A program made the position numbers and the translations under genes. From IMG/VR virus record IMGVR_UViG_3300030330_004178, positions 1 through 33,740 of that record: 33,740 nucleotides of DNA, one strand, 5' to 3'. The number at the start of each line of letters is the position of its first letter. The stretch's first letter is position 1. The notes beneath the pieces are model-generated. The model did not search any database, was not told the origin of the DNA, and saw nothing but the letters and a program-made list of their open reading frames with translations. This document shows positions 1,018 to 13,221 of this stretch, in pieces. Source of the stretch: a virus. Its lineage: Duplodnaviria > Caudoviricetes.

Positions 1018-1926
1018 ATGGCCATTTCTAGAGGACAACTAGTTAAAGAACTAGAGCCAGGTTTGAATGCCTTATTCGGCCTGGAATATAATCGTTATGA
1101 GAATCAGCATGCTGAGATCTATACTACTGAAAGTTCAGACAGAGCGTTTGAAGAGGAAGTAATGTTATCAGGATTTGCTCAAGCTCAAGTTAAACCAGAA
1201 GGATCTGGTATAGCTTTTGACAATGCTCAAGAGACTTATACTGCAAGATACACACACGAGACTGTGGCTCTTGCCTTCGCAATAACTGAGGAAGCAATCG
1301 AAGATAACTTGTACGACCAACTTTCATCTAGATATACAAAAGCATTAGCTAGATCGATGGCGAATACTAAACAAGTTAAAGCAGCGAGCATCTTAATTAA
1401 CGGATTACCTGGTGGATCTTTTCAATCAGGTGATGGTGTAACGCTATTTAACACAGCTCACCCAACAATTGCTGGTAATGTTAAAAATACATTAACAACA
1501 GCGGCTGACTTAAATGAAACTTCATTAGAGCAATCATTAATTGATATTAATGCATTCACTGATGAGAGAGGACTTAAAGTTGCTGCAAGAGGAGTAAAAA
1601 TGATTATTCCTAGTGAGTTACAGTTCACAGCTGAGAGATTAATGAAATCTCAAGGCAGAACAGGTACAGCTGATAACGATGTAAACGCAATAGCTTCAAT
1701 GGGAATGATCCCACAAGGCTATAGAGTCAATAATTTCTTGACTGACACAGATGCGTTCTACATTATTACAGACGTGCCTAATGGTATGAAGTATTTCGAA
1801 AGATCTCCTATCAAAACAGCGATGGAAGGTGATTTCGATACTGGTAACGTGAGATACAAAGCTAGAGAAAGATACTCATTTGGAGTATCTGACTTCAGAG
1901 GTATCTTTGCATCACCAGGTGCTTAA
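1018..1926 (+). CDS. Major capsid protein, Mu gpT-like family (HK97 fold)
   Basis: 302 aa; N-terminus MAISRGQLVKELEPGLNALFGLEY and C-terminus DFDTGNVRYKARERYSFGVSDFRGIF typical of this family; AAGGAGG SD; strong terminator follows. Confidence 0.88.
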   Translation: MAISRGQLVKELEPGLNALFGLEYNRYENQHAEIYTTESSDRAFEEEVMLSGFAQAQVKPEGSGIAFDNAQETYTARYTHETVALAFAITEEAIEDNLYDQLSSRYTKALARSMANTKQVKAASILINGLPGGSFQSGDGVTLFNTAHPTIAGNVKNTLTTAADLNETSLEQSLIDINAFTDERGLKVAARGVKMIIPSELQFTAERLMKSQGRTGTADNDVNAIASMGMIPQGYRVNNFLTDTDAFYIITDVPNGMKYFERSPIKTAMEGDFDTGNVRYKARERYSFGVSDFRGIFASPGA

Positions 1927-1936
1927 TATTTACTTT

Positions 1937-1969
1937 AAAGGGGCGAAACACAATTTCGCCCCTTTTTTT
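1937..1969 (+). terminator. Intrinsic terminator after the capsid gene
   Basis: AAAGGGGCGAAA-CACAA-TTTCGCCCCTTT stem ending in a T7 run. Confidence 0.9.
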
Positions 1970-1984
1970 ATTTAGAAAGAAAAA

Positions 1985-2263
1985 ATGCGACCTCAAAAAT
2001 TTTTAGTAAAAATAGCTGCTTATGAATACGGGACTGAATTTATAATCCAATGTATTGATAGCCCTATTGATATTGAAAATGCAATCATTGACAGATTAGG
2101 AAATTCTGATATAAAATGGGAGTATCTTGGAGAAATGATGGATCCCAAGGTAAATAGAATAACCTATGAGGAGGTTATCAATGGAGGCGATAATGCAACA
2201 TCTGGAGACTCTCTACACAAAGAAGAGAGGTTTAGATCTTCAATGGGAGCAGGAGCATCTTAA
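1985..2263 (+). CDS. Hypothetical protein (92 aa)
   Basis: ORF after the terminator with upstream AGAAAG; 3' end overlaps the next ORF. Confidence 0.6.
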   Translation: MRPQKFLVKIAAYEYGTEFIIQCIDSPIDIENAIIDRLGNSDIKWEYLGEMMDPKVNRITYEEVINGGDNATSGDSLHKEERFRSSMGAGAS

Positions 2264-2408
2264 AGAGGGTAGATATACTCTCAATATGGTTAAGATTGAC
2301 CGAAAAGTTAGAGATGTCATTAGCCATATAAAACTAGCTGAAGCTAAAAAAGCTGATCTAGAAAATAAAATAGAGGCTGCTCAACCACAAGTTTCTGTAG
2401 CTACTTAA
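2181..2408 (+). CDS. Hypothetical coiled-coil protein
   Basis: GAGGAGG SD precedes ATG 2181 (alternative ATG 2193 with GGAGG); charged, helical sequence. Confidence 0.7.
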   Translation: MEAIMQHLETLYTKKRGLDLQWEQEHLKEGRYTLNMVKIDRKVRDVISHIKLAEAKKADLENKIEAAQPQVSVAT

Positions 2409-2455
2409 TAAAAAGCTACATCGTTGGAAAAAATTAATCCGCACTACAGGCTCTC

Positions 2456-2484
2456 TTGCACTCTATTAAAATCTAATATATAAC
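2456..2484 (+). promoter_or_regulatory. sigma70-like promoter
   Basis: TTGCAC(2456-2461)-17 bp-TATAAC(2479-2484); predicted +1 near 2491. Confidence 0.65.
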
Positions 2485-2490
2485 TTAATC

Positions 2491-2561
2491 ACTATACAAT
2501 TAATTAGAACATAGACGCGTATAGTCGACGGCCTAGAGACTATGTTCGGTAAACTAGGAGG
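2491..2561 (+). ncRNA. Structured pseudoknotted 5' leader RNA, possibly the Mu-gpT-DE motif
   Basis: Three interleaved helices: ACTATAC 2491-2497/GTATAGT 2519-2525; GAACATAG 2507-2514/CTATGTTC 2540-2547; CCTAG 2532-2536/CTAGG 2554-2558 (overlaps SD). Lies downstream of a Mu-gpT-like capsid gene. Confidence 0.7.
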
Positions 2562-2569
2562 ATATAATC

Positions 2570-3112
2570 ATGGCAAAAACTACATTTCAAGGACCAGTAA
2601 AATCAATTAATGGTTTTCAAGGTGTTGGAACTGGAAACTCTGTAAGTATCGGAGCAGGTGCAACTTCTTTAACTGTTGATTCACATGCTGGTAGAATGTT
2701 GTACCACAATGTTGCTGGTGCAGCTACTTTGACTTTACCTGCGATTAATTCATCTGCAGACTCAGGTGTTGCAGGTCCAGGTAATGATCCAAACTCAGCA
2801 AACAATTTAGGTGCTTCTTTTGAGATATATATTGGAGCAGATAAATCTGGTGACTTTGTTTTACAAGTTGCTAATGCTAGTGACACTATGACTGGTAATG
2901 CGCTTATTGTTGATACTGACAGTAGTGATAATGGTGAGGGTTTTATGACTGCAGCCGCATCTGATACTGTTACTTTAAACGGTAGCACAACAGGTGGAAA
3001 AGCAGGATCAATCATAACTTGCAAAGCTATTGGCGAAAACAGATGGGGTGTACAAGTAACATCTGGAGGAACTGGTAACTTAGCTACACCTTTTAGTGCA
3101 GCAGTAAGTTAA
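2570..3112 (+). CDS. Virion structural protein (head fibre/decoration-like)
   Basis: 180 aa, Gly/Ala/Thr/Ser-rich, AGGAGG SD, within the structural module. Confidence 0.6.
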   Translation: MAKTTFQGPVKSINGFQGVGTGNSVSIGAGATSLTVDSHAGRMLYHNVAGAATLTLPAINSSADSGVAGPGNDPNSANNLGASFEIYIGADKSGDFVLQVANASDTMTGNALIVDTDSSDNGEGFMTAAASDTVTLNGSTTGGKAGSIITCKAIGENRWGVQVTSGGTGNLATPFSAAVS

Positions 3113-3124
3113 TAATTAATTTAG

Positions 3125-3153
3125 TGTGGGGCTTAGGCCCCACATTTAATTTT
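3125..3153 (+). terminator. GC-rich hairpin, probable terminator
   Basis: TGTGGGGC-TTAG-GCCCCACA followed by TTTAATTTT. Confidence 0.7.
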
Positions 3154-3165
3154 AAGGAGAAAAAA

Positions 3166-3450
3166 ATGGCAAGTAAAGGTGATGTAAAATCAGTAAGAGT
3201 TACAGCTACTGGAGCAGTATTTGCAGGAAGAACAAGATTAAGAGGAATTATTCTTGCTTCTGACGCAGGCGGAGCCGGGACTATAATTCTTCAAGACAAC
3301 ACAGACAGCACAACTTTGTTTCAAGCAGACGTTCCTAACGGAGATGTTTTTTCAATGAACATTCCTGAAGATGGAATTTTATTTCCAGGTGGAATGAAAG
3401 TCTCTACAATTACAAACATAGATGCAGCTACTTTATTGATTGATAAATAG
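3166..3450 (+). CDS. Small structural protein (94 aa)
   Basis: AAGGAG SD before ATG 3166; the track's 3124 start lies in the hairpin. Confidence 0.7.
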   Translation: MASKGDVKSVRVTATGAVFAGRTRLRGIILASDAGGAGTIILQDNTDSTTLFQADVPNGDVFSMNIPEDGILFPGGMKVSTITNIDAATLLIDK

Positions 3451-9498: not shown

Positions 9499-9788
9499 GA
9501 TTTAAATAATTTTTTAAATAAATTTTTTATACGTCCTATTAAAGACTTATTTTCAAAGTATTCTATACACTCTGCTATCGTTTGTTGACGTATATATTCT
9601 TCTCGTATCTCTTGTGATGAAGGCTTTTCATTATGCCAACGTTCTAAGGTATAATTACCCTCCCAAGCTTTTAACTCATACTCAGTGTTTCTAATTAAAG
9701 AATCCATGACAGTGTTCACTCCCCATGAAAAACCGTTTTCGTTTGTATATTTTTCAATAACTTGTTTTGTTGTATATTTTGATTGCAT
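9495..9788 (-). CDS. Hypothetical protein (97 aa)
   Basis: Coupled by TAATG to the minus-strand oxygenase; converges on 9148-9498. Confidence 0.7.
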   Translation of the reverse strand: MQSKYTTKQVIEKYTNENGFSWGVNTVMDSLIRNTEYELKAWEGNYTLERWHNEKPSSQEIREEYIRQQTIAECIEYFENKSLIGRIKNLFKKLFKS

Positions 9789-10399
9789 TATATTATCTCC
9801 AGTTCTGATATTTTTTTTCTATCTCCTAACACTCCTTTTACAAAAGAATTAAAAGCCAGACTAATTCTAAGATTATCTCCTTTTTTAACATCTACTTTAT
9901 GAGTTAGTTCTGAAGGAAATAATAAAAGATCTCCTGAAGTAACAGGATACCACCAACTTTCAGAGTTGTAGAGATTCCAATTTTTTGTTTCGGGTTTAAT
10001 TCTTTTATAACAATTATTAAAAAATCTAATCATGTCGTTTTCAGGATTAGCGTTTACATAAAGCACACCAGATATCATACTATTAGGATGTTCATGTATG
10101 TGATGATATTCGTCTGTTCTTGTAAAATTTAACCAAGACTGAGTTATGTAAGGTTTTACGTTTTTCCACTGCGTGATAACTTTGTTATACTCTAATAAGT
10201 GTGTAAATAACTCTTTTTTTAATTTTTTAAAAACAGGTTTTTCTAAAATGTATGAATCATCTGAAATATAATTACTCTCGTTTTGATGGATACTTTTATT
10301 TATCTTATCCATGGCTTTCATCTCTGTTTTACTAAATTCTCTACCTAAAGAAGTTATATAAATAGGTGTTGGAAAAATAGCATCAATTTTGTATTTCAT
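9788..10399 (-). CDS. 2OG-Fe(II) oxygenase-like protein (TIGR02466 type)
   Basis: Start MKYKIDAIFPTPIY at 10399; HxH (HEH)PNSMISGVLY, LLFPSELTH, RISLAFN. Confidence 0.85.
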   Translation of the reverse strand: MKYKIDAIFPTPIYITSLGREFSKTEMKAMDKINKSIHQNESNYISDDSYILEKPVFKKLKKELFTHLLEYNKVITQWKNVKPYITQSWLNFTRTDEYHHIHEHPNSMISGVLYVNANPENDMIRFFNNCYKRIKPETKNWNLYNSESWWYPVTSGDLLLFPSELTHKVDVKKGDNLRISLAFNSFVKGVLGDRKKISELEII

Positions 10400-10413
10400 A
10401 TTTCTAACATAAA

Positions 10414-10457
10414 TATATACTTGAAAATAAATAAAAATCAAGTATATAGGATTTTAT
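10414..10457. promoter_or_regulatory. Overlapping divergent promoters within an 11-bp inverted repeat
   Basis: TATATACTTGA 10414-10424 / TCAAGTATATA 10438-10448; each strand reads TTGAnn-16 bp-TATATA. Confidence 0.6.
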
Positions 10458-10472
10458 GAAAGATAAAATTAA

Positions 10473-10952
10473 ATGATCAAAGTAGTAGATAATTTTCTAT
10501 CAGATAACGAGTTTTTTAAAATACAAAATATTATCTGTGGTAATAGTTTTCCGTTTTATTATAATGACCAAATAACAGATGAAAATGACCCCATAGATTA
10601 TTATTATTTCATACACTTATTTTTTATTAACAATTCACCAAATAGTAATTATTTTAATTTATGGGAGTCTTTTTTAGAAAAGATAGAGTGCAAAGCCCTA
10701 ATTAGAATAAAAGGTAATATGTATACAGGTGGTAGAAAGAAAATAATACATAGACCACATAAAGATTATGATTATCCACACAAAGGTTGTTTGTTTTATA
10801 TAAACGACAATAATGGGGCAACATATTTTAAGAATAAAAAAATATTACCGAAAGCAAACAGAGCCGTGTTTTTTAACCCACATGAACCACACTCTAGTTC
10901 TATTTGCACTGATCAAAAAAGAAGAATAACAATTAACTTTAATTATTTTTAA
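10473..10952 (+). CDS. 2OG-Fe(II) oxygenase
   Basis: HKD (HxD), FYINDNNG.T.F, NRAVFF, distal His (PHSS), RITINFNYF. Confidence 0.85.
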   Translation: MIKVVDNFLSDNEFFKIQNIICGNSFPFYYNDQITDENDPIDYYYFIHLFFINNSPNSNYFNLWESFLEKIECKALIRIKGNMYTGGRKKIIHRPHKDYDYPHKGCLFYINDNNGATYFKNKKILPKANRAVFFNPHEPHSSSICTDQKRRITINFNYF

Positions 10953-10953
10953 T

Positions 10954-11526
10954 ATGAAAAAAAAATTAGAAGATTATGTTTTAACAGCTCAATCCGCATT
11001 ACCTATTAAATTGTGTAATGACACAATAAAAGAAATAAATAAAAATAAAAAAAATTGGTCAACTCATAAATGGCACAACAGAAAAAATGAAGAGGTTGTT
11101 TCTCTCAGTGGTAACAAAGAATTAGATAATCTTTATATGAGATCAAATAACTCTCAAGAAATAATGAGACTTTTATGGCACGTAATTCATGGTTATACAA
11201 AACATTTAGACTTTCCTTGGTTTCAAGAATGGACTGGGTATACCGAAGTTAGATTTAATATTTACAAAAAAAATAAACAAATGTCTGATCACTGTGATCA
11301 CATTGCATCTATATTTGATGGTCAAAGAAAAGGTGTTCCTATACTTAGTTGTGTTGGTGCATTAAATGATAATTTTGAAGGTGGAGAGTTTATGATGTTT
11401 GATGATATGACATTTAAATTAAAACAAGGTGACGTGTTAGTTTTTCCATCTAATTTTTTATATCCTCACAGAGTAAACCCTGTAAAGAAAGGAGCCAGAT
11501 ATTCTTTTATTTCATGGGTTTGGTAA
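10954..11526 (+). CDS. 2OG-Fe(II) oxygenase, prolyl 4-hydroxylase-like
   Basis: HCD, LNDNFEGGEF, FPSNFLYPHRVNPVKKGARYS. Confidence 0.9.
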   Translation: MKKKLEDYVLTAQSALPIKLCNDTIKEINKNKKNWSTHKWHNRKNEEVVSLSGNKELDNLYMRSNNSQEIMRLLWHVIHGYTKHLDFPWFQEWTGYTEVRFNIYKKNKQMSDHCDHIASIFDGQRKGVPILSCVGALNDNFEGGEFMMFDDMTFKLKQGDVLVFPSNFLYPHRVNPVKKGARYSFISWVW

Positions 11527-12011
11527 TTACAAAAATAAAAGAACATTCAACTATTAAAAAAATGATTCTAGATGAAATACATAAAACAAAACAAGGTAAC
11601 TATAAAAATATTACTTCTACTGATTGGCAAACTCCATCTAATATTGAAAGAACATATTTTACAAAACATATAAAAGACATAATAAATAAATATTATACTA
11701 GAATAGCGGAACAATTGGGATTAAAAGATTTTAATCTTACAAAATTAATTACACATAATTGGTGGTTTCAGATTTATGATAAATACTCTACGCATGGTTG
11801 GCACACTCATGCTGGTTCACATTTTACAAACGTTTATTTTATAGAGTTACCAGACTCAACATGTGCTACAGAAATAAAAGGACACAGTAATTTAAATATA
11901 GAAGAGGGAGATTTAATTACATTTCCTGCATATTGGCCTCACAGATCTCCTATTAATACAACGAATAAAAGAAAAACAATAATATCTTTTAATACATCGT
12001 ATGAATATTGA
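11514..12011 (+). CDS. 2OG-Fe(II) oxygenase-like protein
   Basis: WFQIY, HGWHTH, FPAYWPHRS, KTIISFN. Confidence 0.8.
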   Translation: MGLVITKIKEHSTIKKMILDEIHKTKQGNYKNITSTDWQTPSNIERTYFTKHIKDIINKYYTRIAEQLGLKDFNLTKLITHNWWFQIYDKYSTHGWHTHAGSHFTNVYFIELPDSTCATEIKGHSNLNIEEGDLITFPAYWPHRSPINTTNKRKTIISFNTSYEY

Positions 12012-12573
12012 ACATTTATTTCCAACAACAATAGGCTATGAGTTTTGTCCTTTTCATAATAACATAGAAAAAAAATTAGTTGATCACTGTAATTCTTTTT
12101 CTAATAGATATAATAATAAAGACTCATTTTTAAATAATGGTCAATTATTTACCACATTTGAAAAACATAATTTATTACAAGATAAAAAGTTTGATAAACT
12201 TAATATGTGGGTTGTTGACAAAATTAAAGAATATATGAAACAGACAACGATGCTATATAATATGAAATTTGAAGGCGAGGCATTTTTTAATATATATAAC
12301 AAACATGATTATCAAGAAGCACACAATCATTTTGGTTTTGTAATATCCTGTATTTATTTTCTAAAGGCTAATAATAAAGCTAGCAAAGTATTTTTTAGAC
12401 CACATGTTTTTGATAATATTAAATATGATAATTTTACTTACTCACCTAGCACACCTGTTTTTTATGAAGCACAGCCAGGTAAGTTATTAATATTTAGAAG
12501 CTACATTGATCATTTTGTAGAACAACATTTAGATGAGGAACAAAGAATATCCTTAGCTTATAATTTTAGATAG
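12001..12573 (+). CDS. 2OG-Fe(II) oxygenase-like protein (TIGR02466 type)
   Basis: LFPT start, QEAHNH, ISCIYFL, LIFRSYIDHFV, RISLAYN. Confidence 0.85.
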   Translation: MNIEHLFPTTIGYEFCPFHNNIEKKLVDHCNSFSNRYNNKDSFLNNGQLFTTFEKHNLLQDKKFDKLNMWVVDKIKEYMKQTTMLYNMKFEGEAFFNIYNKHDYQEAHNHFGFVISCIYFLKANNKASKVFFRPHVFDNIKYDNFTYSPSTPVFYEAQPGKLLIFRSYIDHFVEQHLDEEQRISLAYNFR

Positions 12574-12582
12574 GAGAGAAAT

Positions 12583-13221
12583 ATGGAAGAAACAAGAGCT
12601 GTACTACCTGTGTTTTCAAAGGTAATTTACATAAATAAAATAAAACTTAATCATAAAAAAATAAATACCTTAATAGGTAAAAAATTTGTAAAGGCAGGAC
12701 ATCGAATACCTGAAGACCCTAAAAATATATCTAGCTTTAGTGAAAGTAAAAACATTTTAAATTTATCTAAGTTTAAAGATTTAAAAAAACAAATCATGGA
12801 TGAGTTATATTTTTATACAGAAAATGTTTTAAGATATAAACATAAATTTACCATGACAACATCTTGGTTTACTAAAACAGAAAAGAACGAAGAGTCTGGT
12901 TTTCATAACCATAGAAATGCATATATTAGTTGTATATTATATATAGATGTTAATGATAAAGCAGGAATGTTAAGTTTTATTGATTATAACGTTAATAAGA
13001 TGTTTCAGCTAACTCCAATTGAATATAATAATTTTAATTCTGAAACTATTAGAATAAAGCCAGAAAATAATATGATAATATTTTTTCCTAGTGAGATGTA
13101 TCATAAGGTGTGTTTACATGAGTCTAATGTTCCTAGAATATCTTTAGCTTGTAATTTTATACCAATAGGGGATATTTCTGATCCCAGTAGTGATAGTTTT
13201 GTTCATTTGACCATTAAATAA
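12583..13221 (+). CDS. 2OG-Fe(II) oxygenase-like protein (TIGR02466 type)
   Basis: HNHRN, ISCILY, FFPSEMYHKV, RISLACN. Confidence 0.85.
   Translation: MEETRAVLPVFSKVIYINKIKLNHKKINTLIGKKFVKAGHRIPEDPKNISSFSESKNILNLSKFKDLKKQIMDELYFYTENVLRYKHKFTMTTSWFTKTEKNEESGFHNHRNAYISCILYIDVNDKAGMLSFIDYNVNKMFQLTPIEYNNFNSETIRIKPENNMIIFFPSEMYHKVCLHESNVPRISLACNFIPIGDISDPSSDSFVHLTIK

Follow-up and report, generated by a model that had tools for sequence, protein, structure and literature searches.

The window, by which we mean the whole stretch of viral DNA analysed here (33,740 nucleotides, IMG/VR record IMGVR_UViG_3300030330_004178), carries a structured leader in front of a 180-aa gene, and the locus raises the question of what RNA this leader forms, to which gene it belongs, and what it does there. 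A first-pass annotation of the same DNA had proposed a pseudoknotted RNA able to sequester a Shine-Dalgarno (SD) site, acting either as a translational switch or as a ribozyme or packaging-type RNA.

Genome context

Sequence comparison identifies the window as part of an HTVC023P-type pelagiphage genome, and positions 1900-3200 match HTVC027P, psg01, and HTVC023P. The capsid gene, the two terminator-like hairpins, the promoter, the leader element, and the 180-aa gene described below all lie on the plus strand. The gene for a Mu gpT-like major capsid protein (302 aa, 1018..1926) is recognized by PF25209 (49.8 bits), PF10124 (25.7 bits against a cut-off of 20.1), and the PHROG family phrog_371, and its product is 85.8% identical to the HTVC027P capsid protein. 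A sequence scan places an intrinsic-terminator-like hairpin at the end of the capsid operon (1937..1972) and a second terminator-like hairpin behind the 180-aa gene (3123..3152), with none between the leader element and that gene (2570..3112). The element is separated from the capsid gene by 565 nt and two small ORFs of 92 and 80 aa (1985-2408), which lie between the capsid terminator and the leader in different frames with a 98-nt overlap; this module is missing from HTVC023P, where the leader directly follows the terminator. A TGTAGCT/AGCTACA hairpin (2396-2420) spans the stop codon of the 80-aa ORF immediately 5′ of the −35 box and was recovered by a strict pattern in 24 of 50 close relatives. 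Farther along, profile search found five neighbouring 2OG-Fe(II) oxygenase-like genes (9788-13221).

Fold and covariation of the leader

The leader contains three crossing helices, all of them exact reverse complements as the first-pass annotation had read them: P1 (7 bp) pairs the predicted first bases of the mRNA (2491..2497) with loop A (2519..2525), P2 (8 bp) closes the junction by pairing 2507..2514 with 2540..2547, and P3 (5 bp) pairs loop B (2532..2536) with 2554..2558. The 3′ strand of P3 (feature 2554..2562) overlaps the SD AGGAGGA (2556-2562), covering AGG 2556-2558, the first three of its seven bases. A crossing chain of 7, 8, and 5 bp arose in none of 3000 dinucleotide shuffles of 2485-2570 and in none of 1566 window tiles, no tile containing the entire element. 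The nested folding energy of 2485-2575 was unremarkable (z −0.41), which is expected because the element is a pseudoknot. The conserved core, absent from the earlier annotation, is a three-way junction (2514..2540) built from three GAC triplets (2514-2516, 2527-2529, and 2538-2540) that pair cyclically: G2514-C2540, C2516-G2527, and C2529-G2538 are joined by G2517-C2526, and A2515, A2528, and A2539 stay unpaired in the junction. The label "triple-helix" formerly given to the leader is a misnomer, as three helices are present and base triples are not in evidence.

The annotation had made its reading depend on conservation or covariation of these helices among relatives, and both were found. From 175 long-form sequences (the form seen in the window) we took 44 representatives less than 90% alike, aligned them without structure, and then counted pairs; 96.3% of cells were paired and 14 of 23 pairs changed on both sides, a level reached by 0 of 500 shuffles. 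Both strands of P2 are supported by covariation, with two-sided changes at 8 of 8 pairs and 100% pairing, and the loop A strand of P1 by sequence together with two-sided changes at 3 of 7 pairs. For P3, one of five pairs covaried in this alignment, in which four HTVC023P-type rows are misaligned; in rows of that type the P1 and P3 sequences are swapped relative to the window. Strand variants do support the loop B pairing, the 175 relatives including CCTAA/TTAGG (10), CCTAT/ATAGG (1), and GTATAG/CTATAC (15). Compensatory changes (G-C to A-U, G-C to U-A, and C-G to U-A) affect every junction pair except C1-G2 (numbered by triplet). In the 139 parsed loci of the capsid-anchored sample described below, G1-C3 is GC in 126, AU in 10, GU in 2, and UA in 1, and the second pair of arm A is UA in 65, AU in 47, GC in 24, and CG in 3. 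Although every helix varies in sequence, 106 of the 117 strictly parsed loci keep GAC/GAC/GAC. Wobbles in 1050 P2 cells were G-U in 51 cases versus A-C in none, which favours plus-strand RNA as the molecule that folds. We conclude that the ∼80 bases before the predicted spike gene almost certainly form a conserved three-way-junction RNA with two pseudoknots.

A mutually exclusive helix, ATAGTC/GACTAT (2521-2526/2538-2543), had been put forward as the other state of a switch. It is exact in the window but not conserved as a feature in its own right: there were no compensatory changes, 258 of 500 shuffles paired equally well, and at least five of its six pairs form in 157 of 175 close relatives but, among the 80 long forms of the capsid-anchored sample, in only 23. 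We therefore read it as a probable by-product of the adjacent helices. Because no conserved alternative fold was found, the term "switch" is unproven; a docking of P3 that is stabilised by a ligand would, however, leave no trace in an alignment.

Distribution

Using the capsid protein alone, we fetched 160 loci in two sets, each the best 80 of about 600. Nine loci were too short, and a gene whose product begins with the motif MAxTTFxG (the arm gene) was present in 141 of 150 listed. Between them, two heuristic parsers recovered the junction at 137 of these 141 loci, and a unified parser, with two isolates added, found it in 139 of 143 as compared to 10 of 429 shuffles. The 139 comprise 80 long, 51 short, and 8 permuted forms, frequencies that are not population values, the ranking having been by likeness to a short-form capsid. 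In the permuted form (L694, L696, L772, L773, L777, L783, L817, and L725) arm B encloses the SD, and the start codon is immediately preceded by the third GAC. P1 of at least 5 bp was present in 80 of 80 long forms versus 447 of 1600 shuffles, with 23 different 5′ strands.

The element tracks the arm (spike) gene, not the capsid gene. Where the arm gene adjoins the capsid gene, 113 of 115 loci have the junction; where other genes intervene, 24 of 26 keep it at the arm gene and none of the 26 has it behind the capsid gene. This bears on the possibility of a small-molecule riboswitch, in which the three-A junction would be a pocket for a ligand, e.g., an infection nucleotide signal, whose binding would lock P3 over the initiation site. 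The compact invariant core, exchangeable peripheral helices, and pseudoknot over the SD or AUG would suit such a sensor, and translational riboswitches of the preQ1/SAM-II type share that core-plus-pseudoknot layout. However, the element always stands before a structural gene and never before a metabolic one (109 of 110 readable matches precede the arm gene, and the remaining one a near-arm variant), and no Rfam riboswitch matched, so we regard a riboswitch as quite improbable.

Four of the 141 arm-gene loci had no junction by either parser (L695, L708, L789, and L814). Divergent junctions include a longer arm A with the P1 loop kept (L296:177-272), U-A in place of G1-C3 in DSL-LC04 (L841, upstream of 2235), and non-GAC triplets in L814. 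Our own long-form model, R1, gave weak matches before another gene at L321:351-415 (minus strand, 20.8 bits) and L336:958-1026 (plus strand, 16.7 bits); each is a hairpin plus SD and probably a chance match. A 16-bp palindrome occurs in 27 of 280 loci (e.g., L324, L329, L333, L350, L351, L352, L355, and L369), in some short forms as arm A itself and otherwise close by; none occurs in the window, and we take it to resemble a parS centromere site. The more distant capsid relatives Alcaligenes QDWS535, Caulobacter RW, and ct2G2228 had no such leader by eye. In a pattern scan of cellular genomes (1 of 64 parts), all three helices were found in 0 of 120 matches as compared to 107 of 120 viral ones, and the cellular pattern matches are chance. 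The capsid family accounts for an estimated 36,000 stored stretches in IMG/VR. Among cultured phages, HTVC027P and HTVC023P have the long form and Roseobacter phage CRP-902 the short form.

Relation to Mu-gpT-DE

The first-pass annotation had linked the leader, from its context, to Mu-gpT-DE, a motif reportedly published in an RNA-motif discovery study of metagenomes. In Rfam, Mu-gpT-DE RNA (RF03012) is a catalogued 53-nt motif of unknown function, with membership set at a covariance-model score of at least 49 bits; its ZWD structure has 11 pairs as compared to 9 in Rfam (PMC7657543 supplement, consulted in part). The RF03012 model had no match in the window at E≤10, nor did Rfam as a whole give any match over the element at the gathering threshold or at E≤10. 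There was likewise no RF03012 match in HTVC027P, HTVC023P, or psg01, and Rfam returned nothing for 20 loci chosen from the long-form scan and the isolates.

The link nevertheless holds in position, downstream gene, and core. Loci reached by way of remote homologs of the 180-aa protein carry true RF03012 elements (50.6-60.3 bits) that end at the AUG of the homolog's gene, and short forms score 50.6-72.3 bits on the model, CRP-902 reaching 72.3. The same capsid gene is present in 81 of 82 short-form loci with enough upstream DNA (57-74% identity), two of the short-form loci (L397 and L363) encode full-length homologs of the 180-aa protein (E about 1e-50), and on the capsid tree the long forms are mixed in among the short ones. 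The setting of the window element is that of RF03012, i.e., same strand, downstream of a gpT-like capsid gene, and followed by the same gene family. The two RNAs share three GAC triplets with G1-C3 and C1-G2 pairs (part of the RF03012 consensus), the site before the MAxTTFxG gene family, and pairing into the initiation region. They differ in arm A, which in the window has 2 bp and a loop paired to the 5′ end whereas in RF03012 it is a closed 5-bp hairpin; in P2, which has 8 bp upstream of the SD in the window but 4 bp in RF03012, where its 3′ strand (CAGG) is the SD; and in the partner of loop B, the SD in the window and the start codon in RF03012 copies. A search of 39 loci with R1 recovered one copy in its own record and no short-form element in the 36 short-form loci, so the homology rests on position, gene, and core. 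Judged on these features, the window element is a homologous long form, a longer relative of Mu-gpT-DE that is not a member by model. The Rfam model stops short of the start-codon pseudoknot, part of which may already be in print in the authors' own structure. In the literature, "Mu-gpT-DE" was found only in the CaCoFold paper, "gpT" was absent from the main text of PMC5737381 (consulted in part), and a core 14-mer was absent from six supplement files of PMC10690425; the publications found do not describe the long-form fold, of which supplements may hold a description.

Pairing into the translation initiation region

Outside the permuted form, P3 is aimed at the start of the downstream gene. 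It was found in 122 of 129 non-permuted loci versus 152 of 1290 loop shuffles. Its two strands occur in 37 different combinations, and the helix ends between −18 and +7 of the start codon (the search range being the leader and the first 10 coding bases). In the 117 strictly parsed loci, P2 covers the SD and P3 the AUG in 48, P3 covers the SD in 36, and P3 covers the AUG in 17; thus the SD and/or start codon is paired over in 101 of 117. P3 ends 0-6 nt before the SD in another 14 loci, and 2 have no P3 overlap call; these weigh against a strict SD gate. The earlier claim that the last helix covers the SD is therefore sound as regards pairing into the ribosome-binding region, but not as a universal rule, since P3 does not include GGAG in 21 of 175 close relatives. 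Even at a distance of up to 10 nt from the SD, a compact pseudoknot attenuates translation (PMC10018353, consulted in part).

Where the pairing reaches the coding region, loop and codon 2 match: a GCC loop accompanies GCN (Ala2) in 54 loci and a CCC loop accompanies GGN (Gly2) in 13 (67 of 67). On a FastTree capsid tree, in which a few form labels are mis-parsed, the loop and codon-2 traits each change 10 times, and independent pairs agreed on 4 of 4 starred branches (p 0.125), too few for significance. The signal at the next pair is weaker, GCA codons occurring in 13 of 75 loci with loop U versus 2 of 108 with loop A, and most loop-U cases keep GCT. As in autogenous operators, the fold lies on or directly beside the initiation region of the gene it would regulate. 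The leader probably controls translation in cis.

Such control could be that of a fixed attenuator, in which the RNA needs no partner to fold, its junction A's do no more than stabilise it, and a constant, lower initiation rate sets the spike-to-capsid ratio. The absence of a conserved second conformation agrees with this, as does a P3 whose geometry varies yet stays near the start codon, and the leaders of T4 e and soc repress without a ligand (PMC3014915, consulted in part). On the other hand, a simple hairpin would suffice for that purpose, and the GAC identities are kept far past pairing needs (106 of 117 loci), for which reason we consider a fixed attenuator unlikely. In bare-duplex energies P3 amounts to −4.7 kcal/mol as compared to −9.8 kcal/mol for SD:anti-SD (with the sequence that we take to be the anti-SD), so strong repression would need a stabilised junction.

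Promoter and transcripts

A predicted sigma70-type promoter (2456..2484; −35 TTGCAC 2456-2461, 17 nt, −10 TATAAC 2479-2484) puts the transcription start at A2491. The distance from the start of the −35 hexamer to the start of P1 is exactly 35 nt in 147 of 175 distinct relatives, 36 nt in 6, and 21 nt in 1, the other 21 being without that hexamer; because of this fixed spacing, P1 likely begins at the predicted +1. The promoter that the first-pass annotation had placed here, with +1 at about 2491 where helix 1 starts, thus agrees with the hexamers and the spacing as a prediction, but a consensus promoter scanner run on the window did not list it.

In HTVC027P infection, the ortholog of the 180-aa gene (gp62) is a well-transcribed late gene (PMC12753301, consulted in part). 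Mean TPM at the last three time points (Table S3 of the same source) was 10371/33390/74585 for the capsid gene gp59, 3456/8343/11866 for gp60, 8271/20718/36186 for gp61, 12786/22241/28568 for gp62, and 3198/6216/9428 for gp63. The increase of gp62 over gp60 and the drop at gp63 are compatible with its own promoter and terminator; the high value of gp61 weakens that. Late transcription of gp62 is uninformative on translation. Metatranscriptome contigs span the element (7 RNA runs, 1 unlabelled), and strand, start, and level are not readable from them. Some RNA contigs start at 2523, where a polymorphic site would break assembly contigs; we dropped these starts as evidence of processing because they coincide with that site.

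Two further readings meet the evidence here. If P1 keeps the mRNA's first bases paired, the knot might shield the 5′ end by blocking decapping or 5′-3′ decay, and the start of P1, which in 147 of 175 relatives coincides with the predicted +1, would fit; a three-way junction with 5′ and 3′ pseudoknots also resembles the topology of viral exonuclease-resistant RNAs (xrRNAs). However, short forms close arm A as a hairpin without an open loop, 63 of 241 short forms lack a −10-like hexamer and many abut the capsid terminator (a crude test), and the codon-2 pairing would go unexplained. We therefore hold a 5′-end shield to be a poor candidate for the main role, about as improbable as a riboswitch, although the long form alone may have it as a secondary function. 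As to RNase J, the 5′-3′ exoribonuclease that such a shield would face in the host, "rnj" had 0 matches in the HTCC1062 gene table, where two unnamed metallo-beta-lactamase genes were present and 5 of 10 "ribonuclease" rows were covered. A self-cleaving or processed RNA, or a trans-acting or packaging RNA, could likewise invoke the invariant junction nucleotides and the contigs beginning at 2523. Yet no Rfam ribozyme family matched, the RNA pairs with the coding start, and no terminator separates it from the gene, so the suggestion of a ribozyme or packaging-type RNA found no positive support and we judge it very improbable.

The downstream protein

The 180-aa protein consists of an N-terminal arm (MAxTTFxGPV) and a beta-sandwich knob and is predicted, from modelling, to be a trimeric capsid spike. 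HTVC027P gp62, its ortholog with the same leader, is identical at 76 of 180 residues, and the corresponding gene in DSL-LC04 carries the annotation "cement protein". Among the loci the downstream proteins vary in length between 67 and 329 aa, and the conserved part is the N-terminal arm only; the spike body is freely swapped while the RNA core stays. The protein had no Pfam or PHROG match, no convincing PDB sequence match, no Foldseek PDB match at E≤0.001, and, above 0.9 in a protein atlas, matches to unnamed clusters only. A single-chain model gave a beta-sandwich (pLDDT 66.8), the best fold matches of which were phage spike/tailspike domains at Z 5.6-6.6 (weak, and under the distinctive level of the tool), including residues 195-294 of the Pa223 capsid spike. 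These residues form a trimeric C-terminal knob, the spike being anchored by its N-terminal domain (bioRxiv 2025.06.11.659172, consulted in part). Modelled at three copies only, the protein scored 0.94 versus 0.25 for the best control (pLDDT 91; runs share at least 97% of contacts), with residues 1-24 within the modelled interface. Of the solved homopairs, 20 of 30 attained the mark used, as did 1 of 23 monomers, and the pass could stem from likeness to solved spikes.

Discussion

Taken as an operator, the leader may act as a translation-initiation gate closed by a phage protein, most plausibly the unassembled spike trimer, a reading that we place somewhat short of even. The folded leader would lower 30S binding at the spike gene. 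Because core base identities are kept beyond pairing needs, a binder is suggested: P3 alone would be too weak to repress, the junction would have to be stabilised, and its near-invariant, pseudo-three-fold form would be the binding site. The binder would be the spike's own trimer, acting through its three conserved N-terminal arms, and free spike would shut off its own synthesis so that spike output is matched to free capsid sites. Against a protein gate, the swapping of the spike body leaves only some 15 arm residues, a single conserved basic position among them, to read the RNA, and the arm lies in the modelled trimer interface. The arm has, on the model, a ready alternative job in trimerisation and capsid anchoring, and the three junction A's may be conserved for folding alone.

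A broader and more doubtful proposal is that of a widespread phage RNA sensor, in which the GAC junction, with its pseudo-three-fold form, would be recognized by a partner of three-fold symmetry and so gate a capsid-spike gene, and Mu-gpT-DE would be one small subtype. Candidate partners would be the N-terminal arms of the spike trimer or a symmetric ligand, e.g., a cyclic trinucleotide. With these comparisons, what had been an orphan "downstream element" becomes a large family of 5′ leaders open to testing, carried by a phage group that is among the commonest in both marine and fresh water. Peripheral helices change in many ways, yet the core and the targeting of the initiation site persist, and this marks the functional site. 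If a virion protein or a metabolite does close the gate, the leader would give dsDNA phages a new means of keeping decoration-protein output in step with capsid assembly, and would also be a new compact RNA fold.

Among known systems, flaviviral class 1 xrRNAs share the three-way junction, the 5′-end pairing, and the downstream pseudoknot; however, they lie in the 3′ UTR, whereas this element runs from a predicted transcription start over a ribosome-binding site and has no sequence or Rfam match to them. The leaders of T4 e and soc, the latter a capsid decoration gene, also hold the SD and/or AUG in a helix, but they are simple hairpins (PMC3014915, consulted in part, as for the T4 and rpsO comparisons that follow). 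Gene e is relieved by a late promoter that omits the 5′ strand, unlike the promoter predicted here, which would yield the whole fold. The operators of T4 gene 32, which is autoregulated through a pseudoknot, and of E. coli rpsO are likewise 5′-leader pseudoknots tied to translational control. Those are single H-type knots bound by nucleic-acid-binding proteins, whereas here a three-way junction carries two knots and the gene product is a virion protein without a known RNA-binding domain. Of the systems compared, the element appears most like a translational operator.
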